NCBI GenBank assembly: GCA_031553555.1
Contig: JAVBLL010000008.1
Location: 5,662 to 69,661 of the forward strand
Length of the DNA stretch: 64,000 nt
Direction: 5' to 3'
DNA from: Bacilli bacterium
Lineage (GTDB): Bacteria; Bacillota_I; Bacilli_A; ML615J-28; CAG-698
Position numbers and translations under genes: made by a program. Each line of letters begins with the position of its first letter. Positions within the stretch are counted from its first letter, which is position 1. This document shows positions 13,077 to 36,467 of the stretch, piece by piece. Below the pieces are notes generated by a model. The model saw nothing but the letters and a program-made list of their open reading frames with translations, ran no database searches and was not told the DNA's origin.

Positions 13077-14426
13077 ATGAATGATAATTTAAAAATTAAT
13101 GAGTCAATATTATTGACAATAAAAAAAATCGGAATAAATGGTGAAGGTGTTGCCTTCTACAAACGCAAAGCAGTGTTTGTAGAAGGCGCTTTGCCTGATG
13201 AAGTAGTCGAAGTAAAAATCAAAGAAAATTTTGATAAATATGCAACTGGTACAATCATAAAAACTAAAACAACATCAACATATCGTGTTAAGCCGGAATG
13301 CCAATATTATGGGAAATGTGGTGGTTGTCAACTCCAACATTTATCATATGAAGGACAATTAATGGAGAAAAGAAATCTCGTAATTGAAGCTTTTGAAAGA
13401 TATTATGATGGTAGTATGTCGGAAAAAGTCGTTAAAAATACATTAGGTATGGAGACCCCTTGGCATTACCGAAATAAGTCAAGTTTACCATGTCGACATG
13501 ATGGCGATAAAGTAGTTGCCGGGATGTATGCTCTTAATTCCAACCACTTAGTTTTTATAGATAATTGCCCAATTGAAGAAGAATTGATTACCGAAGTGCG
13601 CCAAAATATTTTGAATATTTTAACTAAAGAAAAAGTTGATATATATAATCCAAAATCACATACTGGGTCACTTAGATATATTGTTATTAGAGCCTTTTCA
13701 AAAGAAAATGTTCAAGTTACTTTTGTAATGACAAAAAAAGATATAAAACTAATTAATGTTTTAAAGCAATTAAAAGTAAAATCAACTAGTTATTCAATTA
13801 ATGAAGATCCAAAATCCATTGAAATCTTTGGTGAAGAAATTGTTTATGTAACTGGTAAAGGGATAATTGAAGGGAAACTAAATGATATTAAATTTGAAGT
13901 TTCACCTAATGCTTTTTTCCAATTAAATCAAAAGCAAACCCTAAAACTATATGAAGAAATTAAAAAGGCCTGTAAGCTTACCGGAAATGAGAAGGTAATA
14001 GACTGTTATTGTGGAATAGGAAGTATCGCTCTTTATCTTGCTGATGCAGTTAAAGAAGTTAGGGGCATTGATATAAACCCAATAGGAATTGAAAACGCCA
14101 AGAAAAACGCAAAAATTAATGATATTGACAATGCAAAGTTTTATAGTGGCAACATTCTTCCCCATTTCCATCAATTCAAAGACGAAGGATTCATCTCTGA
14201 TATTTTAGTCGTTGATCCACCACGTAAGGGACTCGAACTTAATATTATTAATTATATACAACGAAGTAATATTAGAAGAATTATTTATGTTTCGTGTAAT
14301 CCTGCAACCCTTGCAAAAAACATTAATCATTTACAAAGAGAATATATTGTTAGATATATTCAACCTGTGGATATGTTTCCTCAAACGGCAAATGTAGAGT
14401 GTGTAGTTTGTTTGGAAAGAAGATAG
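13077..14426 (+). CDS. rlmD: 23S rRNA (uracil-1939-C5)-methyltransferase
   Basis: TRAM domain, CxxxxxCGGCQLQH Fe-S motif, AFFQLN, DCYCGIG, VDPPRKG, YVSCNPATL, DMFPQT. Confidence 0.96.
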   Translation: MNDNLKINESILLTIKKIGINGEGVAFYKRKAVFVEGALPDEVVEVKIKENFDKYATGTIIKTKTTSTYRVKPECQYYGKCGGCQLQHLSYEGQLMEKRNLVIEAFERYYDGSMSEKVVKNTLGMETPWHYRNKSSLPCRHDGDKVVAGMYALNSNHLVFIDNCPIEEELITEVRQNILNILTKEKVDIYNPKSHTGSLRYIVIRAFSKENVQVTFVMTKKDIKLINVLKQLKVKSTSYSINEDPKSIEIFGEEIVYVTGKGIIEGKLNDIKFEVSPNAFFQLNQKQTLKLYEEIKKACKLTGNEKVIDCYCGIGSIALYLADAVKEVRGIDINPIGIENAKKNAKINDIDNAKFYSGNILPHFHQFKDEGFISDILVVDPPRKGLELNIINYIQRSNIRRIIYVSCNPATLAKNINHLQREYIVRYIQPVDMFPQTANVECVVCLERR

Positions 14427-14465
14427 GTATTTTGAATGATGTACAATTCAAAAATGAATAAAATC

Positions 14466-14515
14466 AGCCATTTAACATTTCATCTAATGATGAAACGCTT
14501 AAAATGGCTTTTTTC
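14466..14515 (+). terminator. Intrinsic terminator after rlmD
   Basis: AGCCATTT...TTTCATC-TAAT-GATGAAA...AAAATGGCT followed by T tract. Confidence 0.65.
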
Positions 14516-14809
14516 TTTTGCCAATAATTAGCCTTCCCTCATTTCACAACTTTTTTGTTTAATACTTCTATATTTTTGCAAAATATGATACAATATTGTT
14601 ATAACATGAAAAAATGGTTAATTTATTATGGATTATTTAAAAAAGAAATTATTATGATAAACGGAATTTATTGAAAAGCTTTATCTTAAATATATACATA
14701 TAATAATCATTATTTAAATTTAATTGATTAAGAGCATGAATAACTAAAAAATTGAGTTTACTATGCTTCAAAAATTCGAAATAATTATTTACAAAGAGGT
14801 TATGAGAAA

Positions 14810-15670
14810 ATGAACAGTTTATGGAATGAGAGTAGCTTTCATGATAATATCAAGAATGAAGTAGCTCAGATATGTCGCGGTTTAGGTTATGAAGTAAGAG
14901 AAGAATATAGGGGAAGAGATTGGCGCTCTGATGTCTTAGTTGTGGCAAATGGCAAAAGATATGCTTTTGAAATTCAAACTAGTATTCAATCATTAAACAA
15001 AACGTTAGAGCGACAAGCAAAATATATAAGGGATGGAGTTATAGGCTGCTGGCTATTTGAAAAAGAGCCGACACAGAAAAGTGAATTAGAGAACCTTCCC
15101 CTTTTTAAATTAAATAATAATGTCCAAATAACAGTATCACTTAAAGATAGAAAAGAACTTTCTCTAGATTCATTCATAAAAGATTATTTGCAAGGAAAAA
15201 TAAAGTTTTGTAATAGATTGAATTCACTAGAATTAGAAATTAGATTTATTCAAATGGACTGTTGGAAATGTGGACATGAAAATCATATATATTACATTAG
15301 TGACCTTATTTCACCATGCAATGCAAAAATATTCAGTGGTGATATTGAGATGTGGGTTTCAGACAAATTAATATTTCGCCCTGAAATTAGAATAAAGGTG
15401 ATGGAATATGCTAAAACAACAAAAAACCTAAAAATGGCAACAATTAAAGAGAGATATAGCAAAACAATTGAAAAATCGTATTTGTCTTTTGGATGTTCGA
15501 AATGTGATAGTATTTTTGGAGATTGGTTTGTTCTTGACAATATAATTGATACATGGTATGGTGATGGGGTAATAGATAAAATGACTATTTTAAAGCGCGA
15601 GATACCAGAAGATTTACATAGTGATATTCCACATTGGTGTCATCCAGGTAAAAATGATTTTTGTGAATAA
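14810..15670 (+). CDS. CoiA-like PD-(D/E)XK nuclease with two CxxC pairs
   Basis: RSDVLV...YAFEIQTS nuclease motif; CWKC and CSKC pairs in the C-terminal half. Confidence 0.65.
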   Translation: MNSLWNESSFHDNIKNEVAQICRGLGYEVREEYRGRDWRSDVLVVANGKRYAFEIQTSIQSLNKTLERQAKYIRDGVIGCWLFEKEPTQKSELENLPLFKLNNNVQITVSLKDRKELSLDSFIKDYLQGKIKFCNRLNSLELEIRFIQMDCWKCGHENHIYYISDLISPCNAKIFSGDIEMWVSDKLIFRPEIRIKVMEYAKTTKNLKMATIKERYSKTIEKSYLSFGCSKCDSIFGDWFVLDNIIDTWYGDGVIDKMTILKREIPEDLHSDIPHWCHPGKNDFCE

Positions 15671-15764
15671 AGACTTATATTTTTTTGAAAGGTATCCTGT
15701 TTAAAATTGTCTTATAGATATATCACTATAGTTTAAAATAGTAATGTGCAAACAAGGAGTATTT

Positions 15765-17138
15765 ATGTGTAAAAATGAAATGATTTATGGATTGACATTA
15801 TTATATTCAGAGATAAAATATAATTATGGTATGTTTAATCGTAATCATATTAATCTTGATGATGAATATAAAAAAATATTAAATGAACTAGATAAAATAG
15901 ATACTATATTTGACTATTATATGCTTTTAAAGAGATTTGCGACATTACTTAATGATACTCACACGTTCGTCAGTTTTCCTAATGATGTTTACGAAAAAGA
16001 AAATATTGGAATCTTACCATTTGATATTATATTAATTGATGATAAATGGTATATTAATATGTGGGAAGAAAAGTTTAATGATTTATTTACTCCTTACTGC
16101 GAACTTGTTGAAGTGAACGGTTTAATAACAGAAGATTATTTTGAAAAATATGTTTATCCATATTCATCACATGCATCTTATAAAGATACTTTGGCTATTC
16201 GAAATGTTTTTATTCTTGGTAAAATTGGAAATTCCCTAAATATTCAAATATATAAAGAAAATAAATCAGTTCAAATTGCTATTCCATATATTAATATAAT
16301 TGGAGAGTATAACTGGGTAACATATGAGAAACATAATAATTATTCAAACAAAGCCAAATCATTATATATTTCAGAAGAAAATTGCTTTGAACTATTTGAA
16401 TATAATAATATTGGAATTATTGATTGTTGGAGTTTTAGTAATAATGGACTTATGAAAGAGATGATTAATGAAATTGGTATTCTTAAAGATAAAAAAGGAA
16501 TAATAATTGATTTGAGAGATAATCATGGTGGCAATGGCCCAAATGCTGATGATTTAATAGCTTTATTTGTAAATCAGGATTACTACATTGAAAGGACAAA
16601 TTATCGTGTTCATAAAGCATATGGAAAAGCAAGAGCATATTTTAAAGTATCAAATGGATTAAAAACATATGAAGATTATTTGAAAAAGTATGACATTAAT
16701 GCTAACCCCGAATATCAAGAGTATTATCAGGACTATTATAATCAGCATTTTGAATATAAGGAAGATAAATGTCTGTTAAATAAAAATTATTTAAATATAT
16801 TAAATTCTCCAGTTGTATTACTTGTCGGTCAAAATACCGCCTCAGCGGCAGAGTCATTTGTGATGGCCTATAAATATTTTAATAGAGGAATAATTATAGG
16901 CCAAAGAACAATAGGTGCTGGCGGTCAACCTTTATATTTTTCTCTTCCATTTGGTGGAAATGCTGCAATTAATACAGAGGATAGTTTAATGTTTGACGGA
17001 AAACCATTTAATAATATTGGATATACTCCTGATGTTATTGTAAAGTATTCTATCGATGATTATTGTGACGATAAAAAAAGAAATGTAGATAAAGAATTTG
17101 AACTTGCTATGGAGTATTTTGAAGAATATAAAAAATGA
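15765..17138 (+). CDS. S41 family peptidase
   Basis: LNDTHT, IIDLRDNHGGN, TASAAESF, IIGQRTIGAGG, GYTPDV; AAGGAG RBS before ATG 15765; no signal peptide. Confidence 0.88.
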   Translation: MCKNEMIYGLTLLYSEIKYNYGMFNRNHINLDDEYKKILNELDKIDTIFDYYMLLKRFATLLNDTHTFVSFPNDVYEKENIGILPFDIILIDDKWYINMWEEKFNDLFTPYCELVEVNGLITEDYFEKYVYPYSSHASYKDTLAIRNVFILGKIGNSLNIQIYKENKSVQIAIPYINIIGEYNWVTYEKHNNYSNKAKSLYISEENCFELFEYNNIGIIDCWSFSNNGLMKEMINEIGILKDKKGIIIDLRDNHGGNGPNADDLIALFVNQDYYIERTNYRVHKAYGKARAYFKVSNGLKTYEDYLKKYDINANPEYQEYYQDYYNQHFEYKEDKCLLNKNYLNILNSPVVLLVGQNTASAAESFVMAYKYFNRGIIIGQRTIGAGGQPLYFSLPFGGNAAINTEDSLMFDGKPFNNIGYTPDVIVKYSIDDYCDDKKRNVDKEFELAMEYFEEYKK

Positions 17139-17218
17139 TTTATTTTTATTGATTATGAATGACAAACAATATAAATATTAATTTTATGATTAATAAAAAC
17201 ATTAATGTATAATACCAA

Positions 17219-17247
17219 TTGACAAAATCCAATAATTAAAGTATAAT
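17219..17247 (+). promoter_or_regulatory. Consensus sigma-A promoter
   Basis: TTGACA-N17-TATAAT, perfect. Confidence 0.88.
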
Positions 17248-17292
17248 GATATTATAAAAGTACCAAAAACTAAAAGAAAGGCGGTGTTTATT

Positions 17293-17352
17293 ATGAATAA
17301 TAAAAAATTAAATATAAATTTCGAAGTGAAAACACCAAACTATGTAGCCTGA
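17293..17352 (+). CDS. Putative 19-aa leader peptide MNNKKLNINFEVKTPNYVA
   Basis: Strong RBS GAAAGGCGGTG; lies between the promoter and a terminator that precedes the ATPase/ABC operon. Confidence 0.65.
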   Translation: MNNKKLNINFEVKTPNYVA

Positions 17353-17379
17353 AATAGTTTATTTTTTGATATGCTAGGT

Positions 17380-17410
17380 AAGCACTTCTAATTTTAGAGG
17401 TGCTTTTTTT
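17380..17410 (+). terminator. Attenuator-type terminator in the 5' leader
   Basis: AAGCACTTCTA-ATTT-TAGAGGTGCTT followed by T tract, directly upstream of the next CDS. Confidence 0.8.
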
Positions 17411-17433
17411 ATGGCTACAGAAAGAGGGAAAAT

Positions 17434-19212
17434 ATACATAGATTTAGAAAAATTTTATTGCCAATGCAAGGTAAAAATAAGACTTTGTTACATAAATTGT
17501 ATAATAGAAATTTTGCTATTAAGGAAAATAATTTTATTATTGAAAATGAAAAAGTATTCAAATTTGATTTCCTTAGTTTTTACTTTGAAGGAACTAATGT
17601 TTTAAATACAGAAATGTTATTGATGACTGTTGAGATACCAAAAGAGCATTTTAATATTCATGAAGAGGATTATGAATATTTGATTTCTATTGAGACATTT
17701 TTATTAATGTGTTTATCTAATCCCATTAATGAATTAAGTAAAAATTATATCAATGATGCAAAAAGTCTTAGAGAAAAAGCCCAGTTTAATTCCCAAGAAG
17801 TCAATGAAAATATTATTAGAAGAAATGGCTTATATTATGATAACCTCACTAACTCATTTATCCTAATGATTAAGTTCAATGTTCCTTTAGTTAATGCAGT
17901 TAGTGTGAATTCTAAAAGTGCTATAAAAGCGGTCAAGGAATTACTTGCATTAATTAAAGATAAAGTTGAAAATATTGATTATAGTAAATTAAATGAATAT
18001 ATTTCAACATATAAAAAAGAATTAATAATAAGAAACTATTTACAAGAAAATGATTATATTGTTTTTATTGCTAATGGTAGCATTTTACCCAGAGTTAATG
18101 GCACAAATAAGCCGCTAGAAGCAGCTATTCCTTTTGTCTCGCCAATTGATATGGAAATAACGATTGATGTGGGAGATGCAAAGATGATGGGTATGGGAAT
18201 TAAAAGGGGTATAACAGTTATAACTGGTGGTGGTTATTCTGGTAAAAGTACATTACTAAATGCGATAGAAGAAGGAATATATAACCATATTCCTGGGGAT
18301 GGAAGAGAATTTGCAATCACTAATGTTAATGCATTAGCGATATATGCGGAGGACGGAAGACCTGTATTAAATGAAGATTTAAGACCATTCTTTAACTATT
18401 TGCCATTAACCAATGATTTGTCTAACTTTTCAACAATGCATGCTAGTGGAAGTGTTTCACAAGCAACAAACATCATTGAAGCCATTAATGGTGATATTGA
18501 AGTATTGTTGATTGATGAAGATAAAAGTGCTACTAACTTTATGATTAGAGATAGAATAATGCGCAGTGTTGTTAAAAGGGAACCAATTATTCCTTTCACT
18601 GATAGAGTTAGAGAATTAAAAGAACGACTTAATGTGTCTACCATTTTAGTTATTGGAGGAAGTGGTGAGTATTTTTATTATGCTGATACAATCTTAATTA
18701 TGGAAGATTATATATGCAAGAACATAACTAAAGATATTAAGGAATCAAGGATGTTTATTGAATATTTTAATTATCCAAAAACTGATATTGATATTACAAA
18801 CTGGAAACACCAAAGGTATTTACTTCAAAAAGAAACCACTCAACCCTTTTTATTCTTTAAAACAATTAAGACAGAAAATAATAAACTAATATCATTAGAT
18901 GAATATGTTAGTGACATCACTAGTCTAACACAGATAAAGAATAGTTATCAAATAAATATGTTAGCTAGTATCGTTGAAATGATTCTCGTTGATAAGGAAG
19001 CAGGTAAAAAGGAAATGAAAGAGATAATAATGGAAAAGTTGACTTCTGCATATTCAAATAATAAATTTAATCAAGGAACATACATGACAAGTGGAGAACA
19101 CAGGTGGTATGAAGAGGTGAGAATCGTTGATATTTTGTGCACAATAAACCGAATGAGAGGCATATCATTTTCATCTAATATGAATATGATGAAAAGCAAA
19201 AATGAAAAATAG
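17434..19212 (+). CDS. ABC-class ATPase domain protein (ABC_ATPase, PF09818-like); start uncertain (ATA 17434, TTG 17458 or ATG 17464)
   Basis: FIANGSILPR, ITGGGYSGKSTLL, HIPGDGRE, ASGSVSQA, LLIDEDKSATNFMIRD, EPIIPF; the only RBS (AGAGGG) is spaced for in-frame ATA 17434. Confidence 0.85.
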   Translation: MHRFRKILLPMQGKNKTLLHKLYNRNFAIKENNFIIENEKVFKFDFLSFYFEGTNVLNTEMLLMTVEIPKEHFNIHEEDYEYLISIETFLLMCLSNPINELSKNYINDAKSLREKAQFNSQEVNENIIRRNGLYYDNLTNSFILMIKFNVPLVNAVSVNSKSAIKAVKELLALIKDKVENIDYSKLNEYISTYKKELIIRNYLQENDYIVFIANGSILPRVNGTNKPLEAAIPFVSPIDMEITIDVGDAKMMGMGIKRGITVITGGGYSGKSTLLNAIEEGIYNHIPGDGREFAITNVNALAIYAEDGRPVLNEDLRPFFNYLPLTNDLSNFSTMHASGSVSQATNIIEAINGDIEVLLIDEDKSATNFMIRDRIMRSVVKREPIIPFTDRVRELKERLNVSTILVIGGSGEYFYYADTILIMEDYICKNITKDIKESRMFIEYFNYPKTDIDITNWKHQRYLLQKETTQPFLFFKTIKTENNKLISLDEYVSDITSLTQIKNSYQINMLASIVEMILVDKEAGKKEMKEIIMEKLTSAYSNNKFNQGTYMTSGEHRWYEEVRIVDILCTINRMRGISFSSNMNMMKSKNEK

Positions 19213-21025
19213 TGAAAGCAAATTCAAGAAAAAGAAAAAATATTTTGTTAAAGGCTTAAAATTATCAATTAAAACAATTTATAATTCAAGTAAATATCTA
19301 ATAATTGGGTATGTAGTTTGTTATGCTGTTCTTAGGTTATTACCTTTAGCTAATATATATTTATTGAATATTTTATTAGATAAGTTATTTATTTTAAATA
19401 GTGAAGATAAAGTATTAAATGAAGTGATAAGCATTGCTATAATATATGTATTATCATTAATGGCTTTAAAGATAATTAATTCATTAACTGAAATAATAAG
19501 GAATATCATTTCTCAAAAGGCAGCTCATGAATATGATCAAAATATCTTATTAAAACTTAATGACATGCCAATATCATACATTGACACCTCAACTGGAAAA
19601 GACAACATTGAAGAAGCTAGATATGCTGGAGATATGGTGATTAGATATTTCTTCAGAATAATTATTTCAATTGTTAGTTTATATGCGCTTATAATAGCCT
19701 TAATTCCATTAATACAATTCAATATTTATTTCACTATAATCTTTTTTGTGTTAACAGTGCCTGCTGTTTATTTCTCGCTTAAAATTGAAAAAAACATGTG
19801 GGACTTCCGAAAGGGAAAAAGGGCTGACATAAGAAAAATGAGTTATTATCGATGGATGCTAACCGATCCATGGCCGGCTAAAGATATCAGAATGTATGAT
19901 TTGACTGAAAATATTAAGAAAAGATATAATGAAGAAAAAGATAAATATATTAAACATAACACCAAACATTTGCTTAGTAATTTAAAAATCGGATTAATTG
20001 GAGGGATCTTTAGAAGAATTGGCGAATTAATTTTTTTGGCATTTGTCATTATACAGACATTTAAAGGAAACATTTCCATTGGTAAAATGACTCTTTTAAT
20101 AGGTTATTCAGAAATAATTATCAATCAAATTTATGCTATTTTTACTACAGGCATAATTTATTATAAATTAGAGCTTGATGAACTTGAAAAAGTTTTTGAT
20201 TTTCTAGATTATGAAACAAAAGAATATAAAGGCGAATCATTAAAAAATATTGAAACCATTGTCTTTAATAATGTGTCCTTCACGTATCCATATACTAATA
20301 ATCCTATTCTTGATAATGTTTCTTTTACAATTAATAAAGGAGATAAGTTATCGATAGTTGGAATAAATGGTGCCGGTAAAACCACCATAATTAAATTGAT
20401 ATTAGGTTTATATCAGGTGAATAGTGGCGAAATATTAATTAATGGTAAAAACATTAATGATTATGACTTGCGCAGTTTGTGGCGAATATGTAGTGCTGTA
20501 TTTCAAAAATTTGTTCAATATCCATTAACAGTTAGAGAAAATATAGCAATGTCAGATTTAGAAAGATTAGATAATAATGAAGAAATCATTGCTTCCTTAA
20601 TAGAAAGTGATATATATAACAAACTTCAGACTAAAGAAGACTTTTTAGATACTCATATGACAAGAAGATTTTCTGATGAAGGCATTGAATTATCCAAAGG
20701 AGAATGGCAAAAAATTGCTCTTTCACGAGCATATTTCAAAAAGCATGAATTAATAATTTTGGATGAACCATCGGCTTCCCTTGATGCCGTAAGTGAAGAT
20801 AAAATATTTCAAAATTTTCATAATATTTCAGCATATAAAACCGCTATTTTTATATCACATCGTGTCTCAACAAGTAAGCTAGCAACAAACATTATTGTCC
20901 TAGACAACGGAAAAATTGCTGAGAGTGGAAGCCATGAAGAACTGATGAATTTAAATGGAAAGTATGCAGATCTTTATTCATTGCAAGCAAAGAAATATCA
21001 AGGAGAAAATATCCAAAATGAATAA
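19202..21025 (+). CDS. ABC exporter, fused permease/ATPase subunit 1
   Basis: N-terminal TM helices; GINGAGKTT, LSKGEWQKIALSRA, LDEPSASLD, ISHR. Confidence 0.92.
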   Translation: MKNSESKFKKKKKYFVKGLKLSIKTIYNSSKYLIIGYVVCYAVLRLLPLANIYLLNILLDKLFILNSEDKVLNEVISIAIIYVLSLMALKIINSLTEIIRNIISQKAAHEYDQNILLKLNDMPISYIDTSTGKDNIEEARYAGDMVIRYFFRIIISIVSLYALIIALIPLIQFNIYFTIIFFVLTVPAVYFSLKIEKNMWDFRKGKRADIRKMSYYRWMLTDPWPAKDIRMYDLTENIKKRYNEEKDKYIKHNTKHLLSNLKIGLIGGIFRRIGELIFLAFVIIQTFKGNISIGKMTLLIGYSEIIINQIYAIFTTGIIYYKLELDELEKVFDFLDYETKEYKGESLKNIETIVFNNVSFTYPYTNNPILDNVSFTINKGDKLSIVGINGAGKTTIIKLILGLYQVNSGEILINGKNINDYDLRSLWRICSAVFQKFVQYPLTVRENIAMSDLERLDNNEEIIASLIESDIYNKLQTKEDFLDTHMTRRFSDEGIELSKGEWQKIALSRAYFKKHELIILDEPSASLDAVSEDKIFQNFHNISAYKTAIFISHRVSTSKLATNIIVLDNGKIAESGSHEELMNLNGKYADLYSLQAKKYQGENIQNE

Positions 21026-22787: not shown

Positions 22788-22822
22788 TTGTAAATATATA
22801 AATTCTTAAATATTTGAATAGT

Positions 22823-22871
22823 CAAAAGACTTGTTATAATTGATACCATATCAATTGTAACAAGTCTTTTG
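22823..22871. terminator. Long hairpin (23-bp stem) ending the ABC operon
   Basis: CAAAAGACTTGTTATAATTGATA-CCA-TATCAATTGTAACAAGTCTTTTG, one G.T wobble. Confidence 0.75.
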
Positions 22872-23046
22872 TGTGTTTTATAATTATTAGCGCAAATAAA
22901 TAGTTTTTATTCTAATCTATTAAAATATATTTTACTATAAATAATCTAAATATTTATCAAAAACCACATCTTTTTACAATTTATTCATTAAATTCTTTTG
23001 CTTTTGATAAAAATATGTTATAATAATAGATAAAAGCAGTATATTT

Positions 23047-23178
23047 ATGAAATACATTATTTGTGGGAGTGAAGCGATTAACAATAAATGCAATATATGT
23101 GGATATAAATTATATATTGCGAAGAAATCAATATTCAATAAACTATTTAAATCAAATGAAAGTGACCTTTTTTATTAA
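23047..23178 (+). pseudogene. Short zinc-ribbon-like remnant (43 aa)
   Basis: MKYIICGSEAINNKCNICGYK..: one intact and one degenerate CxxC; TGtTATAAT upstream; weak RBS. Confidence 0.3.
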
Positions 23179-23338: not shown

Positions 23339-23374
23339 CACGTCGAGACTATCGTATTGCTTTATAGGAGATAA
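23339..23374 (+). repeat. Spare rlmD 3' end, copy 1 (att-like junction)
   Basis: Reads HVETIVLLYRR*, a canonical RlmD C-terminus; shares GACTATCGTATTGCTTTATAG with 30882-30902. Confidence 0.8.
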
Positions 23375-26717: not shown

Positions 26718-26719
26718 TT

Positions 26720-29311
26720 ATGTCATTAAATGAAATAAAAATAAAACCTTTTTTTAACTCTCAAAATGATGATGTAATTGAAGAATTCTACATTCCTGCT
26801 CTTTCAAATGCTAAGTGCTATAAAAGAGTTAGTGCATATTTTGATTCTAACATTCTTTCTCTTTACTCAAAAGGTATAGAAAACATTATAAAAGAAAAAG
26901 GGCATATATATTTTGTTTTTTCATGTGAAATTAATGAAAATGACTTCGAACTGATTAAAAAAGCTTATTCAGATAAAATGCAAATTTTCAATAGATTAAA
27001 TGATAGAATCAGTGATGAGTATCCGAGTGACGAGCTTAAAAATTTAGCTTACTTAATTAAGTATGGATTTGTTGATATAAAAATTGCATTCACAAAAACT
27101 GGTGGAATATTTCACGATAAATTCGGCTTAATAGAAGATGAAAGCAATTCAATATATTTTCGCGGTTCTAATAATGAAACAATAGCTTCTGTTTCTTGCA
27201 ATTATGAATCTTTTGAAACGACCTGTTCTTGGAATGCATCGAATAGTGAGAATAAAAAAATTCAGAATGCACAAGAAAATTTTAATAAGCTTTGGAATAA
27301 TAATGCATCAGATGATTTGTATGTTATCGATATCCCAGAAATAGTTAAAGAGAAAATTGTTTCATATTCAAAAGATAGGTTGATTCTTAATTACGAGAAT
27401 AAAGAAAATACTTTTATTCTTGATTTTATTGATAAAAAAATAATAGGAATCAATAATTTAAAAGGGATTAATTATTTGTCTCCAGAATATAGTTTTTTTA
27501 AAAGAGAATTACAACATTTGGTTCAGTCTATATCAGGTTCAAAATATTATTTTTCTAAATTAAACTATTTACACATTAAAAAACTGATAGCGATAATTAA
27601 GGAATATGCTGATAAATATTCTTTTAATGTATATATTACACAGTCATTAAATAAGTTTATCTATCAATGGGATATTATTTTAGATAAAAGACGATTATTA
27701 GGAATTTCTATAAAAAATAAAGATTCTATTTTACAAAAAGATTTTGAAAATTTTCGCAATATTGTTAATTCAGAAATGGTGCGCAGTTTAAGAGAACCAC
27801 AGCTTTGGGATGCTTTTCATATGAGTTATATGATGAGAAGTGCAAATTTTTCAGTGCCTGGTGCAGGAAAAACATCTATAGTTTATGGTGCATATGCCTA
27901 CTTATCTTCAAAAAAAATAAATCAAGTAAAAAAAATAGTCATGATTGGCCCAATTAACTCATTTGGTTCTTGGAAGAGAGAATTTGATAAGTGTTTTGGA
28001 CACAAGAAAAAATTAAAAGTTTTTGATTATCAGAAAGAAAGAGAAGTCACTAGTCAAAATAGATTCTTTCAAATTGCTTTTCATGAAAAAGAAATTAATT
28101 TGTTTTTATTTAATTATGAATCGTTACAAAATAACATTGATGCATTAAAACATATTGTAGATTCTGAAACACTTTTGGTTTTTGATGAAGTTCATAGAAT
28201 AAAATCAATTGATGGAAAAAGGGCAACTTCAGCTTTAAAAATATGTGATAACGCTCGATTTAGAGTTGTTTTAACAGGAACACCAATTCCAAATGGGTAT
28301 GTCGACTTATATAATATGTTAAACCTATTGTTCACGGATGAATATGAATCTTTTTTCGGATTTGATAAGTCTTTTTTGAAATTAGCAAACAATTATGAGA
28401 TAAATCAGAATGCTATCAATCAGTCTATTTATCCGTTCTTCTGCAGAACTAATAAAGCAGATTTAAATGTTCCACCTGCTGATTTGGATAATCTAGACGC
28501 AGGTTATTGCATTACAAATACTCGAGAAAGTGAGCTATTTGAAATAATATATAGGGCATTTCATAAAAACACGCTCCTTTTATATATCAGACTAATACAG
28601 GCTTCTAACAATCCATCATTATTACTGAATTCAATAAAAAAAGAGGATGAAATATTATTTAATACTTTTGATTATTCACCGGATTTTATTGAAGATAGTT
28701 TTGAAGAAATTAGCGAATTAACATCTGAAGATATAGAATATATTAAGTCATTTGATATGACGACAAAATTCTATAAAGGAATAGATTTAGTTAGTCAGTT
28801 GGTTAAGCAAGGATTGGTTATTGTATGGGGGATTTTTGTTGACACTTTATATAAAATAAGAGCTGAACTATTAAATAGAGGGATAAAAGCAAGGGTTATT
28901 AATGGCTCAGTACCAATTAGTGAAAGAGAAAATATTATTAATGATTTTTTAGATAATAAATTTGATGTGCTAATAACTAATCCACATACTTTAGCCGAAT
29001 CAGTTTCTTTACATACTTCTTGTCATCAAGCTGTATATTTTGAATATAGTTTCAATTTAGTTCACATGTTGCAATCAAGAGATAGAATACATAGATTAGG
29101 TTTAGCTGAGGATGCACGAACATCATATTATTACTTAATATTGGATAACCCTTATAGTTTATATACACCAATTGATAAGAAAATTTATCAAAGATTGCTT
29201 GAGAAAGAAGATATTCAAAATAAGGCGTTAAACGCTGAAAGAGTGACGTTTGTATTTGATGATGTTAAAGCAGATGTGATTAGTTTGCTTGGAGATTTCT
29301 ATGGCAAATAG
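26720..29311 (+). CDS. PLD (HxK) nuclease domain fused to SNF2-type SF2 helicase
   Basis: FYIPAL..YKRVSAYF and FHDKFG...GSNNET (PLD); NFSVPGAGKT, DEVH, LTGTPIPN, QSRDRIHRLG (helicase). Confidence 0.85.
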   Translation: MSLNEIKIKPFFNSQNDDVIEEFYIPALSNAKCYKRVSAYFDSNILSLYSKGIENIIKEKGHIYFVFSCEINENDFELIKKAYSDKMQIFNRLNDRISDEYPSDELKNLAYLIKYGFVDIKIAFTKTGGIFHDKFGLIEDESNSIYFRGSNNETIASVSCNYESFETTCSWNASNSENKKIQNAQENFNKLWNNNASDDLYVIDIPEIVKEKIVSYSKDRLILNYENKENTFILDFIDKKIIGINNLKGINYLSPEYSFFKRELQHLVQSISGSKYYFSKLNYLHIKKLIAIIKEYADKYSFNVYITQSLNKFIYQWDIILDKRRLLGISIKNKDSILQKDFENFRNIVNSEMVRSLREPQLWDAFHMSYMMRSANFSVPGAGKTSIVYGAYAYLSSKKINQVKKIVMIGPINSFGSWKREFDKCFGHKKKLKVFDYQKEREVTSQNRFFQIAFHEKEINLFLFNYESLQNNIDALKHIVDSETLLVFDEVHRIKSIDGKRATSALKICDNARFRVVLTGTPIPNGYVDLYNMLNLLFTDEYESFFGFDKSFLKLANNYEINQNAINQSIYPFFCRTNKADLNVPPADLDNLDAGYCITNTRESELFEIIYRAFHKNTLLLYIRLIQASNNPSLLLNSIKKEDEILFNTFDYSPDFIEDSFEEISELTSEDIEYIKSFDMTTKFYKGIDLVSQLVKQGLVIVWGIFVDTLYKIRAELLNRGIKARVINGSVPISERENIINDFLDNKFDVLITNPHTLAESVSLHTSCHQAVYFEYSFNLVHMLQSRDRIHRLGLAEDARTSYYYLILDNPYSLYTPIDKKIYQRLLEKEDIQNKALNAERVTFVFDDVKADVISLLGDFYGK

Positions 29312-30052
29312 CTTCAAAATACATTTTGATAGTAATGAATTAAATCTTCTAAAAAATATAATATTTATATATCAAGTAATGAAAGAAGTTATTGTTATTC
29401 ATCTGCTAATAAAAAAATCATATATGATTTTGGAGTTCCAAACTATTTTGAGTTTCTCGATTTCGTTTGGCATGGTGGCAGTTGGAAAAGTTTAATGATA
29501 AATTTTATAGACTGGTTTTTAATAGAATATGCTTGCGAAAACGAAAAATTATTAGAAATAAAACTTTCTTTTTCAAATGAGATGAAAACGAATTATATAG
29601 GTCCTTTTAAAAATAATCTTTATGTTAATGGGAATCATTCTGGAACCCACATGTGGTGGCAAATTATTGAATTAATTGGTTTACTTAATCGCGAAATTGA
29701 TTCGGACGCTAATTTGTTCATTCATTATCCATCTTTTGTAGAACCACCAGACATTGTTACTTTAATTTGGAAAAAAGAAATTAACCTCTTCAAAAAATAT
29801 TTATCCGATATTGGTTACAAAAGCGATGTAATAGAGAAGTTTGTTAATTGTGCAAAAAAAATTAACACTTTGTACAAATCAATTACTCCTAATTATCTTT
29901 TCTTTACACAAGATAGATTAAGTGATGTTTATAACTCGATTTCTAGACTAAAACAACGATATAATTATTTATTTAAAGATAATTTTCTAGATTTTAAAAA
30001 AGAAATTTTTTATGAAGATATTTCTTTTAAGGAGGTAAGGTATAATGGGTGA
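29301..30052 (+). pseudogene. Hypothetical protein split by a -1 frameshift at A6 (29351-29356); about 250 aa if joined
   Basis: GGAG RBS plus ATG 29301; the 29495 frame is open back to the A tract (K-YNIYISSNERSYC..WHGGSWKSLMINF). Confidence 0.7.
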
Positions 30053-30682
30053 ATTTAGGGGAACACTCGGTGATTTGCAAAAATATATAAATCCATATAT
30101 TCTAACTTTGATAAAAAAAGAAATTTAAATGTAGACCCGCATAATCTTAATTCAATTGTTTATGACTATTTAACGAAAGAATATAAACCATTACCCGGAG
30201 ATGTGTATTTTTTAAATTTAAATGTTTTTTGTGATTATCTTGTTGAAAAAATTGCTGATAATAATGCTAATTGTTATGAGAAGATTTGCAATGACAGTGT
30301 AGATAATAAGAATTCAACTATGCAATATCAATCAAAAAATAATGCTATATTGCCGTTTGAGTTATTGTTCAAGAAGGAAGAAGAATCTATACAAAAATAT
30401 GTTAAAAGATTATTTACTCTGTTATATGATAATAACTACCTCGATGATAAAACATTAATAATGCTCCAGGATAAAATTTATTGTCGGCTTGCTTTCGGTA
30501 TTGATTACCCATTGCTCATTACAGACGCAAGGGAAATTAAAGACAAAAAGGGCCATAATAGATATTGGACGAAATTTAAATTAAATGACACGTATTATGT
30601 TTGCAGTGAGTGGTGGAAAGACAAATTTCATATTTATGAGCAGCTTTTACATGATTGGATTAATATGAAATTTGGTGGTTAG
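30045..30682 (+). pseudogene. Hypothetical protein split by a -1 frameshift near A7 (30113-30119)
   Basis: GGAGGT RBS plus ATG 30045 gives MGEFRGTLGDLQKYINPYI.. stopping after 27 aa; the 30203 frame is open upstream through the A tract. Confidence 0.6.
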
Positions 30683-30873
30683 CATTGATACATAAAAGTT
30701 ATTAAATAAATTGTTCGCTATGATGACAACCAACTTGCTTATTAACTAGTTTAAATTGCATTACTAGTGAAAACGGAAGAAAAATGTCGAAAAGACATCA
30801 AAAAACACCGAAAAAAATATGTTACTTTGCTAGTCTCAGTAAGCGATTTTTCAGCACTTTGGTGGTCATGGTG

Positions 30874-30909
30874 CACATTGCGACTATCGTATTGCTTTAT
30901 AGAATATAA
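30874..30909 (+). repeat. Spare rlmD 3' end, copy 2 (att-like junction)
   Basis: Reads HIATIVLLYRI*; 21-nt exact match to copy 1. Confidence 0.8.
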
Positions 30910-31050
30910 AACACCGAAAATGACCTAAAATAGGCTGGAAATAGTATAAATCAGCAATAAAAAATTATTGGTTATCAGTTACTAATTAGTATTGAAACTA
31001 CATAATTACTATATAAAACTGGAAACATAAAATGAGGAAAAGAGTATTTA

Positions 31051-31704
31051 ATGAATATAAAAAATAATGAGTTAGAAATATGTAGAGCTTATAGTGAGTT
31101 TTATAAAAAAATTAAAGATACTATTCTAGTAAAAGAAAATATTGATTTGTCAAAGACAGATGTCACGGAAGCAGTATTGATAAGAATGTTTACTTATTAT
31201 GTTAATCAAGAGATTAATAAAATTATTCTTGGTAAGGGCAGAATGCAAAGTGCATCAGATTTTTTTGTAGAAACAATCTTATATTATTTACATAAGGTTT
31301 TGGATGATAAACTTACTATTTATTCAGAAAGAACAATATCTAAGGGATTTATGCCAGATATATCTATATGGAAAGATAGTGAATGTATTGCAATAATTGA
31401 ATGTAAAACACAGCTGGGATATAACAGAAGCGGATATCTTGAACAACATTTACAAAGGAAAAGGTTACTTCAGCAAATATTTCCAAATGCTAATTCTTAT
31501 TTGTTAGTAATGACAAATAAGAATTGGGGAAAAAATAATGGATTTACTCAACAAGATAGAATAGAATGCCCGAATGAATTGTTTAGTTTATGTAGAAGTT
31601 GGCCATCTCAAGTTGATACGACTAATATTGTCAATTACATTCAAGATAGATTTGAAGATTTATTAATGAAGTTTTCATTTGAAAATATAAAACAAAATGA
31701 TTAA
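31051..31704 (+). CDS. PD-(D/E)XK restriction-endonuclease-fold protein
   Basis: SER....FMPDISIW....IAIIECKTQLG catalytic pattern. Confidence 0.7.
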   Translation: MNIKNNELEICRAYSEFYKKIKDTILVKENIDLSKTDVTEAVLIRMFTYYVNQEINKIILGKGRMQSASDFFVETILYYLHKVLDDKLTIYSERTISKGFMPDISIWKDSECIAIIECKTQLGYNRSGYLEQHLQRKRLLQQIFPNANSYLLVMTNKNWGKNNGFTQQDRIECPNELFSLCRSWPSQVDTTNIVNYIQDRFEDLLMKFSFENIKQND

Positions 31705-31730
31705 AAGTATTTTGCAAGGAGGAAAAGCAA

Positions 31731-31973
31731 ATGAGCAAAATGTCAAGAAGTGATTTTAAAATGTTAAAAGGTCAGAAAGTAACATTGCAAGTAGTAGAAT
31801 ACGGAGAAGATTCTAAAGTTAAGATCGTTTCATATGGGGAGGATGTTTCATATAAGAAAGCAAGTTATGGCTCATCTAGTAAAACTATTAAAATAAAAAT
31901 TGTTACTTACGGAGAAGATGTAAAATTAAAAGAAGTAACTTATGGTGGAGATTTTGAAGCCATTATAAAATAG
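31731..31973 (+). CDS. 80-aa protein made of five imperfect [KQE]xV[ST]YGED repeats
   Basis: Strong AAGGAGG RBS; VVEYGED, IVSYGED, KASYGSS, IVTYGED, EVTYGGD. Confidence 0.8.
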   Translation: MSKMSRSDFKMLKGQKVTLQVVEYGEDSKVKIVSYGEDVSYKKASYGSSSKTIKIKIVTYGEDVKLKEVTYGGDFEAIIK

Positions 31974-32019
31974 TGAAAATTTCATTGGCGGCTTTTAAAA
32001 CAAAAGGATAATCTTGCTG

Positions 32020-32057
32020 CATGTTGATATGATAGTATTGTATTTAGCCAAAAATAA
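32020..32057 (+). repeat. Spare rlmD 3' end, copy 3 (degenerate)
   Basis: TGCATGTTGATATGATAGTATTG (HVDMIVL) matches copy 1 at 17/23 nt. Confidence 0.5.
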
Positions 32058-32162
32058 TAAAACAATATTAAAGTACAATAAGAATAAAATCTCAAACGAC
32101 ATTTATGATTAAATAAAAATGAAAGAAGTATAAATAGAAAGTTAATTAACGAGGTGAATTAA

Positions 32163-35100
32163 TTGGAGTTAGTATTAAAAGAATTTTGTAATAGTAGTTT
32201 GAATAACAGAAAACTTTTGCTTTTAACTGCTCCAACAGGCTCACGAAAAACAACTGCTGTTAGAAAATACATTGTTGAAAATTATCAAAAATACTGCGCA
32301 GAAGGCAAAAAAATATTTTTCATTACGCAACTAAAAAAGAATTTGCCATATGAAGAGTTAGAAGAAGATTTTAAAAAGGCTGGAATGCATGAAAACTTTC
32401 TGAAAGATGTAATGTTTGTTGACAATAATGCTGATACAGTAATAAATAGTTTTTTAAAACAAAATATTGAGGTTCCACAAAAAGAGTTTACTACTCTGAA
32501 AATATTTAAGCATTTAAATAACTATAAATATAAATTAAATGAATTAGATAAAAATTATAGCGAAGACAAAGCAGATAATTTGAATAATTTAAAAGAGAGA
32601 ATAGTAGAAGAATTTGAACCTGAATTGAGACGAAAAATATTAGCTCATTTATCAATTAAATGTAAAACTGAAAGTGAAAGAAGAAATTTAATAATTAATG
32701 GTGAATTAAGTTGGGTATCAAAGTTATATCCAACTGTATTTACTAGCATGAAAAAAGTTTTAATGATGTCAATAGATAAATTCCTATCTAAACATACTAC
32801 GTTTATAGAGAATGCTTATTTTTTTAATGAACATAAATCAACAGAAGGCGCAATCATTTTCATTGATGAATTTGATGCTGCAAAGAATGTTATTCAAAAA
32901 AATCAAATAAATTTGGGAATGCAAGGAAAAGTAAATTTGATTCAGTTATTTACAAAAATATATAAAAGTCTAACTACAATGAATTTTACACAAGAGATAT
33001 TACAAGACGGAAAAGAATTTCAATATAGTGATGAACAATTTACACCGTTAGAAATAAGGGACGGCATGAAGAAATTTGCAGATGAAATATTTAATGAATT
33101 TCATTTACATAATTTTTATAAATTACAAAATGACAGAGATGACAAAAGAATTGAAAGTGAAAATTCAGAAAATAATTTTTTGTTTTATGATGTAAATTTT
33201 CATTCTATTTTATCGAAAGCAGATTCAAACATTCACATAGATTTTAAAGAGAATATTAATAATTTTGTTTTAGAAAAAAAGTTGGATGATAAATATTTGC
33301 TTTTTAATTTAATAGATAGGTTGAATACTTTTATTGATTATTTTGTTAGGGGAATTCATTGGTGGACAATTAGATATCAGTCTATAAAAAATAAGCATAG
33401 GAAAGAAAATGATTTTTCTATGGACTATGCTAGGAGAAGCATTTTATCAGAATTTGGACTTGATTCAAACGAAAAAGAATGGATTACTAGAAAAATACAT
33501 TCAATATTTAAGTCAGCTAACAATAATTTTTCTGAATCAAGTTGTTATTATGATGATGGCATTTCTTTCTATCATTTTATTGATAGCGACAATCATGCCT
33601 CCATTACTAATATAAATTATTATAATTTTGAGATTACTCCAGAAAAGTATCTTTTAAATCTTTTGGATAATGCAAGAATAATTGGTATATCTGCAACAGC
33701 AGATGTCAAAACTGTTCTAGGCAATTTTAATATTGATTATTTAAAGTCATCATTGGATGCACGATATTATAAGTTGTCTAGTGAAGATATGAATAGAATG
33801 ACTGATAAATTTGTTGCTCAAAAAAATGAAAGTAACAAATATGAGATATTAGTAAAACATATTGAATCAGTGAACGAAGAAATCGATTTAAGCCAATATA
33901 TAAAACAAAAGCTAAATAATGAGTTTAATTCTGGAGACTATATTATCGATAGATATATTAGAACTTACAATGTGATTGAGTTGTTCGTTAAAAATGATTG
34001 TAAAGCTTTTATTTGTTTTATGAATCTTCATATGAATAATGAAGAAAAATTTAACGAAAAATTAATTAGAACATTTTGGAATGATATATTAATTAAATAT
34101 AATAAAAACATTGATGAATATGGATTATATAACCTAAAAACATATAATTATAATGTTGAAAAGAAAAAAGTTCATGATGATCTAGCTAACAATAAAAAAG
34201 TATTGTTATTTTCAACATACCAAACAATTGGTGCTGGACAAAATATACAATATACAATTGATAATAACATTGAAAATGATGCATATATATCTGAAGAAGA
34301 TATAATTGAAGAATTTACAAATAAAAAAGATTTTGATGGCATATATATTGATTGTCCTACTAATGTAATTGTAAATATGAATGATTATGTTACTGAAGAA
34401 AACTTTATTAAATATTTACTTCAAATGGAAGATTTAAAAGAGAATATTGAAATATCGGATGATATGGCATTGCATAATATAAAATCAGCATTTAAAAAAC
34501 ATTACGATAATAAGCATATAAAGTTTGGTTCTCTGGAAAACACTTCAAGTTATGGAAGATTTATATACAAAACTTTTGTACAAGCGACAGGTAGAATTTG
34601 TCGAACAAATAACAAAAATAATAAAGTTTACATATTATTGCATGATAAAGTTTGTAGGGAATTGGCAAAATTTGAAGATGAAATAAAAGATTTTCAAAAT
34701 AATGAAATTAATTCAGCAATAAGATATTGTCTAGATAATTTTGCGAATAAAAAAGAAAATGTAGAAATAAATGAAGATATTATCAAAAATGAAGAAAACA
34801 ACAAATATTTGAAGTACTTAATGGAAAATTTTCGCAAGGATGAGAACATTCGAAAAGAGTGGATTGAATTACGTGATTTTGTTTTGAAATATCCTTTAGT
34901 ACACTCTGAGGAAGCACTTTGTAAAACAAAATATAAAATACAATTACACAAATTTTTTGATAAACCAACCAACTATTATTATTTCGATTATTTAAATAAA
35001 AGCCAACATAATTTAAGAAAAATAAGTAAGCACAAAGACAAATTAAATAGAGAATTTTCTTATACTAAAGCTAGAATAGATAAAATATTGAAAATTCCAG

Positions 35101-35585
35101 GAATTATAGAGTTCTTTAAAGATAATGGATATAAATTTTATTTTGACCAATCTAGTTTTTTACTAATGCCAGAAATATTTGATAGAATTTATTTAGGCGC
35201 ATTAGGTGAGCTTGTAGGAAAGTATATCTTGAAAGAAAACAAAATATTTACATATGAAATTCCAGAATTAGAATTATTTGAAATATTTGATGGTAAACTA
35301 AGCGATGACATTTTTGTTGATTTTAAATTTCATAACGAAACAAGTGGAATTAACAGAAGAAAATTAAATGAAATACGCAAGAAAAAAAAGAAATGCAATG
35401 CAAAAATTGTTATCATCATCAATATTCTTGGTACTGGAAAATATGAGATGAATAGTATCGAAAAAGAAGGAATATTTTTTATTCCGGCATTATTCAATAC
35501 AGAAGATAATAGATATGCAAAAGAAAATATTGAAAAAATAAAGTCTTTAATAATTGAATTTGAAAAGAAATATAAATTTGTTTAA
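32163..35585 (+). CDS. Large SF2 helicase-like protein with C-terminal PD-(D/E)XK nuclease
   Basis: APTGSRKT (Walker A variant), IDEFD, GISATA, QATGRICRT; GALGE...FD...VDFK nuclease; TTG start after GAGGTG. Confidence 0.8.
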   Translation: MELVLKEFCNSSLNNRKLLLLTAPTGSRKTTAVRKYIVENYQKYCAEGKKIFFITQLKKNLPYEELEEDFKKAGMHENFLKDVMFVDNNADTVINSFLKQNIEVPQKEFTTLKIFKHLNNYKYKLNELDKNYSEDKADNLNNLKERIVEEFEPELRRKILAHLSIKCKTESERRNLIINGELSWVSKLYPTVFTSMKKVLMMSIDKFLSKHTTFIENAYFFNEHKSTEGAIIFIDEFDAAKNVIQKNQINLGMQGKVNLIQLFTKIYKSLTTMNFTQEILQDGKEFQYSDEQFTPLEIRDGMKKFADEIFNEFHLHNFYKLQNDRDDKRIESENSENNFLFYDVNFHSILSKADSNIHIDFKENINNFVLEKKLDDKYLLFNLIDRLNTFIDYFVRGIHWWTIRYQSIKNKHRKENDFSMDYARRSILSEFGLDSNEKEWITRKIHSIFKSANNNFSESSCYYDDGISFYHFIDSDNHASITNINYYNFEITPEKYLLNLLDNARIIGISATADVKTVLGNFNIDYLKSSLDARYYKLSSEDMNRMTDKFVAQKNESNKYEILVKHIESVNEEIDLSQYIKQKLNNEFNSGDYIIDRYIRTYNVIELFVKNDCKAFICFMNLHMNNEEKFNEKLIRTFWNDILIKYNKNIDEYGLYNLKTYNYNVEKKKVHDDLANNKKVLLFSTYQTIGAGQNIQYTIDNNIENDAYISEEDIIEEFTNKKDFDGIYIDCPTNVIVNMNDYVTEENFIKYLLQMEDLKENIEISDDMALHNIKSAFKKHYDNKHIKFGSLENTSSYGRFIYKTFVQATGRICRTNNKNNKVYILLHDKVCRELAKFEDEIKDFQNNEINSAIRYCLDNFANKKENVEINEDIIKNEENNKYLKYLMENFRKDENIRKEWIELRDFVLKYPLVHSEEALCKTKYKIQLHKFFDKPTNYYYFDYLNKSQHNLRKISKHKDKLNREFSYTKARIDKILKIPGIIEFFKDNGYKFYFDQSSFLLMPEIFDRIYLGALGELVGKYILKENKIFTYEIPELELFEIFDGKLSDDIFVDFKFHNETSGINRRKLNEIRKKKKKCNAKIVIIINILGTGKYEMNSIEKEGIFFIPALFNTEDNRYAKENIEKIKSLIIEFEKKYKFV

Positions 35586-35687
35586 TAGACCACTATTTCA
35601 ATATTGATAATTAAACATTGCAATATAATCTATGATTTTGATATCAATTATTAATGAATAAAAATTAAACGATAAAAAGAGGATTTT

Positions 35688-36326
35688 ATGAATGAAAAAG
35701 TAAGTTTTGCAAAGAAACATCCAAAATGGAATTTATTTATTGGAGTGTGCTTGCTATTATTTTTAATAGGCCTGACCGGAGGAGCAATATACCTTGTAAT
35801 CATGATATTAGGAAATTGGATATCGAAAATTGTAGAATGGTTTACTACAATTTCGTCTACAATTGACGCAGTTGTGTTGGTTGCATTAATCACTGGAGCT
35901 ATGTCAATTACTGGAATAATAATATCCTCTATTATTGCTAAGATTGTAGATTATAAACATAAAAGAAGAGAATACCTTACTCAAAAAAGAGAAAAGTCAT
36001 ATGGAGAATTTGTTGATATGGTATATAAAATTCAATTAAATGGAAAAAACGGATATGAATATTCACAAAAAGAAATGCAAACCGATTTATCAAAATTTTC
36101 AAAAGATATAACTCTTTGGGGCTCGTCAAAAGTAATTAAAAAATGGGTAGAATTTAGAGGGAACGGACTAAATCCCAATGATGCAGGAAAAATTCTTTTT
36201 GTATTAGAAGAAATAATGAATGAAATGCGAAAAGATTTAGGCTTAAAAAAAGTAAAAAAAGGTGATTTATTATCCTTTTTCATAAATGATATAAAGAAAA
36301 CTATGAAACGTGGAAACACAAAGTAA
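35688..36326 (+). CDS. Hypothetical membrane protein (2 N-terminal TM helices plus helical domain)
   Basis: Two hydrophobic stretches; AGAGG RBS. Confidence 0.75.
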   Translation: MNEKVSFAKKHPKWNLFIGVCLLLFLIGLTGGAIYLVIMILGNWISKIVEWFTTISSTIDAVVLVALITGAMSITGIIISSIIAKIVDYKHKRREYLTQKREKSYGEFVDMVYKIQLNGKNGYEYSQKEMQTDLSKFSKDITLWGSSKVIKKWVEFRGNGLNPNDAGKILFVLEEIMNEMRKDLGLKKVKKGDLLSFFINDIKKTMKRGNTK

Positions 36327-36467
36327 TAATTGTCAATATTTTTAAAACTATTTTATTAGCGTTTTATCAAAAAGTCTAGATGAATTAATTGTTTATATAT
36401 AATAAAAACAATTTGAACAAATAAAAATTAATGTTAAAATAAATAATATTATAAAGAAAGTAAAACT

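Follow-up and report, generated by a model that had tools for sequence, protein, structure and literature searches.

Spare rlmD gene ends as probable footprints of successive insertions downstream of rlmD in an uncultured Bacilli bacterium

Here we report the organization of a 64-kb stretch of DNA (C6:5662-69661, contig JAVBLL010000008.1; hereafter the window) that contains rlmD, the gene of a rumA-type 23S rRNA uracil-5-methyltransferase, together with two short segments farther downstream that read like the last 11 codons of rlmD and the two gene blocks that these segments bound. The genome (G000; its relatives also bear G numbers) consists of 38 contigs with a total length of 2.03 Mb and a G + C content of 29%, and its best protein relatives are labelled uncultured 'Bacilli bacterium'. 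DNA of the window was found in one public sequencing run only, an invertebrate gut metagenome that is probably its source. The rlmD gene (13077-14426, forward strand) is intact and encodes 449 amino acids (aa); the product aligns with PF05958 to its last residue and has a TRAM domain, and its homologues are named RlmD by NCBI. Every gene downstream of rlmD is likewise on the forward strand, the G + C content is 24-29% across 15.5-45 kb compared to 29-33% upstream of rlmD, and core genes are clearly back from truB (45350).

An initial annotation, made from the sequence of the window, had noted that rlmD ends differently from two intergenic segments downstream, and translation confirmed this reading. 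The resident gene ends in NVECVVCLERR and a stop codon (14391-14426), whereas the two segments, both on the forward strand, encode HVETIVLLYRR (copy 1; 23339-23374) and HIATIVLLYRI (copy 2; 30874-30909), again followed by a stop, with 21 identical nucleotides between them. Each copy comprises exactly 11 codons and a stop, their mutual similarity begins at codon -11, and both are located in non-coding gaps between gene blocks; copy 1 stands in a frame of 27 codons that is not a gene. The 21-nt core lies within a direct repeat of 39 nt (23337-23375 and 30872-30910; 87% identity) and has two matches in the window but none in 100 shuffles. Even with up to 4 substitutions, the core occurs only at copies 1 and 2 in the 2.03-Mb genome, and the 21-nt repeat, whose occurrence away from the rlmD locus had been named as refuting, was not found elsewhere genome-wide.

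The tails were scored with a weight matrix of 71 distinct RlmD C-terminal 11-mers, obtained from 118 of 119 non-self homologues, which was run over all six frames of the genome with the reversed genome as control (maximum score 19.1). The resident end scored 37.9 and was followed by copy 1 at rank 2 genome-wide (29.4; 10 bits above the best control match) and by the ends of two real rlmD paralogues (20.8 each). By this measure, copy 1 is a genuine RlmD end, far outside chance. Two further tail-like matches, C17:17536 (18.5) and C11:3587 (16.7), remained below the control maximum and were rejected. A third segment that had been taken for a degenerate spare end, HVDMIVL (32020-32057, forward strand), was also rejected, with a score of 0.6, no DNA similarity to the other tails, no junction motif and no profile match. 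Of the three spare rlmD ends that were said to separate coherent gene modules, copy 1 thus stands by its rank and copy 2 as a repeat of copy 1, both in gaps as claimed, but the third is at chance level. A similar fate befell the motif ATAA(A/C)TCAGC, which had been seen after the resident end and both copies: the exact pattern is present in the window only after copies 1 and 2 (at least 2 matches were obtained in 9 of 100 shuffles), the resident version is one base longer, and the motif was dropped as evidence because local alignments of the 90 nt after the tails were not above shuffles (521 and 463 of 2000 reached the score).

The two copies delimit two units on the forward strand, neither of which has a recombinase. 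Unit 1 (14427-23338; 8.9 kb) encodes, according to Pfam and NCBIfam, a CoiA-like nuclease (14810-15670), an S41 peptidase (15744-17138), a PF09818 ATPase (17458-19212) and two ABC exporters (19202-21025 and 20955-22787). Unit 2 (23375-30873; 7.5 kb) encodes a Dcm methylase (23593-24837), a protein resembling restriction endonucleases of the Sau3AI family (24815-25513), an unknown protein of 411 aa (25482-26717), a PLD-SNF2 helicase (26711-29311) and three small open reading frames (ORFs; 29289-29495, 29495-30052 and 30203-30682). No relaxase or Rep domain was found in units 1 and 2.

The resident tail is far more conserved than the gene it completes. It equals the tails of six relatives in 31-33 of 36 nt, whereas their rlmD bodies are only 62-71% identical to that of the window. 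No other end is as common as NVECVVCLERR among the 120 best RlmD homologues, and a comparison of seven genomes that carry it (21 pairs) yielded 31-36 identical positions in the last 36 nt of rlmD, with matches at 8-12 of the 12 third-codon (synonymous) positions, against 61-76% identity over the rest of the gene (95% in one close pair). The conservation continues for about 180 nt after the rlmD stop, which are kept at 85-91% in G003 (same genus), G027, G031 and G037 (another family), and beyond which the sequences of these four genomes diverge. Judged from these identities, NVECVVCLERR is a horizontally spread sequence, and the resident tail can be read as a replacement end supplied by an element, on the side of the left attachment site (attL).

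An alignment of the rlmD-recQ interval across related genomes was impossible because the rlmD-truB interval showed no synteny in the genomes compared (four from the same genus and one from a relative of the family), and the junctions were compared in its place. We searched 41 relatives for the Recombinase domain and ran the tail matrix over 414,558 nt of sequence following rlmD in 24 of them, extended where needed. The scan yielded seven short-frame orphan tails on the strand of the gene and two on the opposite strand, and three more were found further out in G037. Next to rlmD, this genome has a 59-kb prophage (terminase, capsid, tape measure, D5-type primase) with two genes of large serine recombinases (LSRs) at its right end, followed by a tail; a second unit of 7.2 kb (a truncated PF09818 ATPase and two ABC exporters) ends in another tail, and a third unit of 5.6 kb (YhcG nuclease, MNT/HepT, Abi_2) in a decayed one. 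In G019, a 12-kb element (Rep_trans, DpnII restriction-modification, GmrSD, MazG-like protein and an LSR of 678 aa) is followed by a tail, an AbiEi/AbiEii pair, a second tail, a 5'-nucleotidase and a third tail. These three tails score only 12-16.5 each, and they are located within 4 kb, on the strand of the gene and directly after the recombinase. An LSR gene with Resolvase, Recombinase and Zn-ribbon domains is thus found beside a displaced tail in G037 and G019, but not in the window.

The G037 prophage (G037:C3:47.6-106.7 kb; regions L072, L080, L081 and L083) additionally encodes a BspA-type LRR surface protein, an RHS-repeat protein of 2029 aa, a SAM synthetase and an amidoligase, and its adjacent LSRs are 35.6% identical to each other.

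Other relatives have tails without recombinases. G003, G018 and G027 contain one recombinase-less unit each (2.8, 6 and 8.3 kb), and arrays are present in G066 (four orphan tails; units of 12.9, 2.2, 1.1 and 1.7 kb), G072 (two tails; 0.8 and 1.9 kb) and G095 (three tails; 1.5, 0.6 and 1.65 kb), with no recombinase domain in the scanned ORFs of these arrays (17 of the 20 ORFs of region L100 and the unit ORFs of L102 and L103). In total, 20 tail-bounded units were identified in nine genomes, including that of the window; 2 have an LSR and 18 have no recombinase domain among the scanned ORFs. The gene-content blocks of the relatives break exactly at the orphan tails, and two blocks keep an LSR beside the displaced tail. 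Insertions into the rlmD 3' end that bring a replacement end and displace the old one, which the initial annotation had presented as established, were therefore seen directly in relatives of the same order. Among 106 genomes of the order, 19 match a 291-nt junction sequence of G037, often at several places on a single contig. In G014, an LSR gene is located 3.4 kb downstream of rlmD, and the 16.7 kb examined there contained no orphan tail. LSR genes also follow rlmD paralogues at a distance within about 1-2.5 kb (G034:C1:82.6-85 kb and G028:C39:29-33 kb). The products of these paralogues are 32% identical to RlmD of the window, and paralogue ends may also be targets.

The sequences directly before the orphan tails link the window to these relatives. 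This right end is nearly invariant in G003, G027, G037, G066 and G072, contains two copies of CCTTTGGTAGT and terminates in TAGTCTCAAC. It is matched by TAGTCTCAAT before copy 1 (23328-23337, forward strand), the putative right-end half-site of unit 1, which, together with GAGACTA inside copy 1, makes up an inverted repeat of 8 bp. The resulting dyad reads TAGTCTC, 10 nt, GAGACTA, and the corresponding sequence of the relatives is CTCAAC...GTTGAG. The symmetry around the crossover is present at copy 1 and weaker at copy 2, which weakly fits the expectation that an internal junction, formed by two element half-sites, is more symmetric than a terminal one. The right end of unit 2 (30826-30869, forward strand) has the degenerate right-end repeats TTTGCTAGTC at 30826 and TTTGGTGGTC at 30858; they are the sole matches of TTTGSTRGTC in the 64-kb window, a support that is partly circular because the letters of the pattern were fitted to the site. 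TAGTCTCA is likewise without a second occurrence in the 64-kb window.

A DNA profile built from five junctions of relatives only was run on the whole genome of the window. Its top match genome-wide was the resident tail (E = 1.5e-4), its second match was 23327-23372, which comprises copy 1 and 12 nt of its left flank (E = 0.021), and the next match had an E value of 0.47; the match at copy 2 was not significant (E = 13). Unit 1 also resembles the tail-bounded second unit of G037 in its cargo: the ATPase is about 60% and the two ABC exporters are 45-47% identical at the amino acid level, their order is the same, and both units end at the right end. This shared and ordered cargo ties unit 1 of the window to the G037 family.

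The conserved element ends (regions L035, L071 and L083) hold four copies of the motif CCTTTGGTAGT (about 11 nt): the right end has two, both direct, and the left end has a direct and an inverted one. The regions with this motif, which cover about 180 nt from the rlmD stop onwards and the last 60 nt or so ahead of the orphan tails, had no Rfam match (the left end was searched at five loci, with 0 matches). The copies of CCTTTGGTAGT may represent binding sites of a recombinase or an accessory factor.

Copy 2 differs from copy 1 by signs of decay (E to A and R to I). In its HVETIVLL-type sequence it is similar to the seemingly native rlmD ends of G004 and G001, two relatives of the genus. It is probably the oldest tail of the locus and, by its likeness to these ends, may even be the native end of rlmD.

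In the explanation that we consider likely, the window contains two accreted, recombinase-less units at an LSR attachment site in rumA/rlmD, and the tails are the footprints of successive insertions. The tails, the repeat, the homology of the junctions and the presence of the same architecture with recombinases in relatives are directly observed. According to this explanation, the last 11 codons of rlmD (rumA) would serve as attachment site for LSRs of temperate phages and integrative elements. An incoming element would cross over about 11 codons before the stop, keep the gene whole with codons of its own and push the old tail to its far side. At the locus in the window, there would have been at least two such insertions: unit 2 would have inserted first, bringing copy 1 and displacing copy 2; unit 1, a member of the family that supplies NVECVVCLERR, would have inserted later and displaced copy 1. 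Both events would have involved serine-recombinase chemistry, and the recombinase genes of the two units would have been lost or never present, so that the units would now be either passengers or remnants similar to cis-mobilizable elements (CIMEs). Two captures (14427-23338 and 23375-30873) are supported by the evidence, rather than the three or four that had been proposed.

Several observations weigh against this explanation. As stated in the initial annotation, the island is free of integrases, and no recombinase domain, gene or fragment was found in 14427-40059. The search for LSRs that it had recommended did reveal two in the genome, but they are on other contigs (C20, with a length of 2.9 kb, and C25:45372-46982), and although they are 56% identical to each other, they share only 24-29% identity with the rlmD-linked LSRs of G037 and G019; the very short contig of the C20 gene suggests an unassembled repeat or mobile element. 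Unit 1 is without the left end of about 180 nt after the stop that is common to G003, G027, G031 and G037. In G003 the shared junction sequence starts at CA/AAC, and in the window it starts at TGCAC; from sequence alone, the crossover dinucleotide could not be fixed. Taken alone, copy 2 has a chance-level score (9.3) and counts only because it repeats copy 1. For neither copy was a close DNA relative found in the collections searched: the exact 21-mer had 0 matches in genome_contigs and in metagenome_contigs, and a search of 106 genomes of the order with the 21-mer, allowing up to 3 mismatches, gave 8 matches compared to 6 for a control pattern, which is noise. Lastly, a 39-nt repeat with an identical core of 21 nt would also suit a tyrosine recombinase.

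The closest kin of the units are the rumA/rlmD LSR elements of Firmicutes, which include vanG elements, ICE-r elements, integrative and conjugative elements (ICEs) of the Tn5252 type, IME_SpnAP200_rumA and the rumA prophages of Streptococcus suis. For vanG and ICE-r elements, passages of PMC4120198 describe an insertion into rumA at a dinucleotide that displaces a '3' 11 codon segment', with the gene of a serine recombinase at the right end and a site that can be occupied by one or two elements; a section of PMC7168690 reports that rumA of S. suis holds Tn5252-type ICEs and many prophages. The relatives and the window share with these elements the insertion about 11 codons before the stop, the in-frame replacement of the gene end with displacement of an 11-codon tail, and the presence of more than one element per site; a serine recombinase at the right end beside the displaced tail is found in G037 and G019. 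The units of the window differ by having no recombinase, and because there is no LSR in the window, compared to two in G037 and one in G019, they would be derivatives or passengers rather than autonomous members. Further differences are that the recombinase genes of G037 and G019 have their own stop 140-200 nt before the tail and are not fused to it, that a prophage with a pair of LSR genes is the driver seen in G037, and that the hosts belong to uncultured low-GC Bacilli of an invertebrate gut metagenome. The hotspot, the swap of the 11-codon tail, tandem occupancy and the decay to remnants flanked by attachment sites are already in print. In a narrow search of the literature on integration hotspots and defense systems, rlmD was not mentioned among the papers listed, which does not prove its absence.

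CIMEs were defined for ICEs with a tyrosine integrase at the 3' end of fda (ICESt1 and ICESt3 of Streptococcus thermophilus), whereas the site is rlmD in the present case and the recombinases of the relatives are of the serine type. The units of the window nonetheless resemble CIMEs, which, in the part of PMC5704250 devoted to them, keep both the left and the right attachment site (attL and attR), have lost the genes for integration and transfer, and become stacked when a new element integrates in a flanking attachment site. Unit 2 is flanked by the 39-nt repeats, and unit 1 by the resident tail and the junction at copy 1. The tandem genomic islands linked to ssrA in Dehalococcoides (PMC3146451) are also located at the end of a single-copy conserved gene, but their target is a tmRNA gene rather than a protein-coding gene.

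It is conceivable, if doubtful, that the units are instead dedicated recombinase-less cassettes with a complete junction (right-end repeats and 11-codon tail), which LSRs of phages or integrative and mobilizable elements capture, excise and reshuffle in trans. The rlmD 3' end would then be an integron-like platform, and the units of the window would be two such cassettes. The prevalence of units without a recombinase domain (18 of the 20 units in the nine genomes) speaks for such a platform, as does the small size of many of them in G066, G072 and G095 (0.6-2.2 kb, one to four small genes). Also in its favour, the right ends (about 48 nt) are nearly identical, and the left ends (about 180 nt) 85-91% identical, across two host families with different cargo, and the ATPase/ABC cargo recurs beside the right end in G000 and G037, with a single ABC gene of the unit 1 type as a unit of 2.2 kb in G066. 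However, the cargo shared by G000 and G037 has a DNA identity of only 67-71%, which means that the transfer is not recent; the first unit of G066 resembles a prophage remnant (holin, RHS toxin), which fits deletion; and the units of the window are large, with unit 1 devoid of the conserved left end. No excision junction, excised circle or alternative junction was seen in the source run, for which only contigs were available, where rare forms cannot show. The contigs covered the locus evenly, and the only joints were short-sided (20-25 letters at 90% likeness) and read as spurious. Like mobile integrons, the array is one-directional and consists of promoter-poor cassettes that have no recombinase of their own and are separated by short conserved sites. 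The integron likeness drawn in the initial annotation nevertheless found no support. The array of the window has no integron features, as an IntI tyrosine recombinase, attI and Pc are all absent beside it, and its junctions are protein-coding tails and repeats that are homologous to the LSR-linked junctions of relatives.

We regard tyrosine recombinases, whose insertions typically leave long direct repeats of the gene 3' end, as an improbable alternative to serine recombinases at this locus. The 39-nt repeat of copies 1 and 2 with its identical core is typical of tyrosine-type attachment cores, but the two tails on either side of unit 1, the resident one and copy 1, agree at only about 56% of positions and have no long identical core. 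Moreover, a search of the genome for tyrosine recombinases (PF00589) revealed only two Xer-sized genes far from the locus, the recombinases directly beside the displaced tails of relatives are LSRs, and the published rumA-targeting elements use serine recombinases, as described in parts of PMC4120198 and PMC5704250. Chance similarity or a local duplication unrelated to mobile elements is extremely improbable as the origin of the tail-like segments: although the scores of copy 2 (9.3) and of the third segment (0.6) are within the range of chance, copy 1 is far above the best control, lies on the strand of the gene 8.9 kb downstream, is preceded by the right-end half-site of the family and is matched by the profile from other genomes only, while the 21-nt core ties copy 2 to copy 1, and this origin is already largely refuted for copies 1 and 2 and stands for the third segment.

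With regard to the cargo, the label of defence cassettes that had been given to the array clearly fits only unit 2 (Dcm, Sau3AI-like protein, PLD-SNF2 helicase); unit 1 has the nuclease, peptidase, ATPase and exporters. Five genes of unit 2 (23593-30052; Dcm, the Sau3AI-like protein, the unknown 411-aa protein, the PLD-SNF2 helicase and a 185-aa protein) keep their order in a genome of another family (G411; region L096, G411:C3, about 11.8-18.3 kb) at 38-62% amino acid identity and in part in G122, in both cases away from rlmD. Only the PLD N-terminus of the helicase matches PADLOC PbeA or NCBIfam 'phospholipD_antiphage'. The helicase is present in 15 of 400 genomes of the class, and a search for the PLD-SNF2 protein in genome_contigs gave no confirmed relative. 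We consider the module 23593-30052 a candidate multi-gene defence system.

Downstream of copy 2, two ORFs (31051-31973, forward strand) that had been described as a nuclease plus repeat protein were without a match in Pfam, NCBIfam or PADLOC. They are followed by a DdmD-like protein of 1140 aa and a membrane protein (32163-36326, forward strand), and no markers of the array were found within 31051-36326. Beyond 36326, there are RecQ, a DnaJ-Sel1 protein and more accessory genes. RecQ (36468-38285) has a full-length match to TIGR01389 (674 bits, above the cut-off) and was not found in four genomes of the same genus and one relative of the family (0 of 5 at E <= 1e-30). It may be accessory in the genome of the window, and the accessory region therefore possibly extends further by other routes. 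The cluster between the island and truB (40273-45228) has a weak ScmC-like match, an NTP_transf_5 protein (PF14907), an S24-like peptidase, and an ABC ATPase with a permease, and may be a candidate locus for peptide modification and export. An ordinary ribosomal protein L21 leader (Rfam RF00559, 44.8 bits) is located upstream of rplU at 47828-47897.

This locus provides a clean record, at the level of sequence, of how the end of a housekeeping gene serves as a landing pad for phages and islands. Defence and transport genes pile up at the rlmD end, and the last 11 residues of the protein are swapped each time. The array of the window is probably static unless a phage of the same family arrives, because there is no cognate recombinase in the genome. 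Across the order, most tail-bounded units are recombinase-less, and many are the size of a single gene. Should such units move in trans, the rumA/rlmD hotspot would be a cassette exchange platform in uncultured gut Firmicutes and, if this is true, would amount to an integron-like system that sits at a protein-coding gene end and is operated by serine recombinases. The tails, together with the right-end motifs, are simple markers of island boundaries and of new defence cargo in metagenome-assembled genomes.

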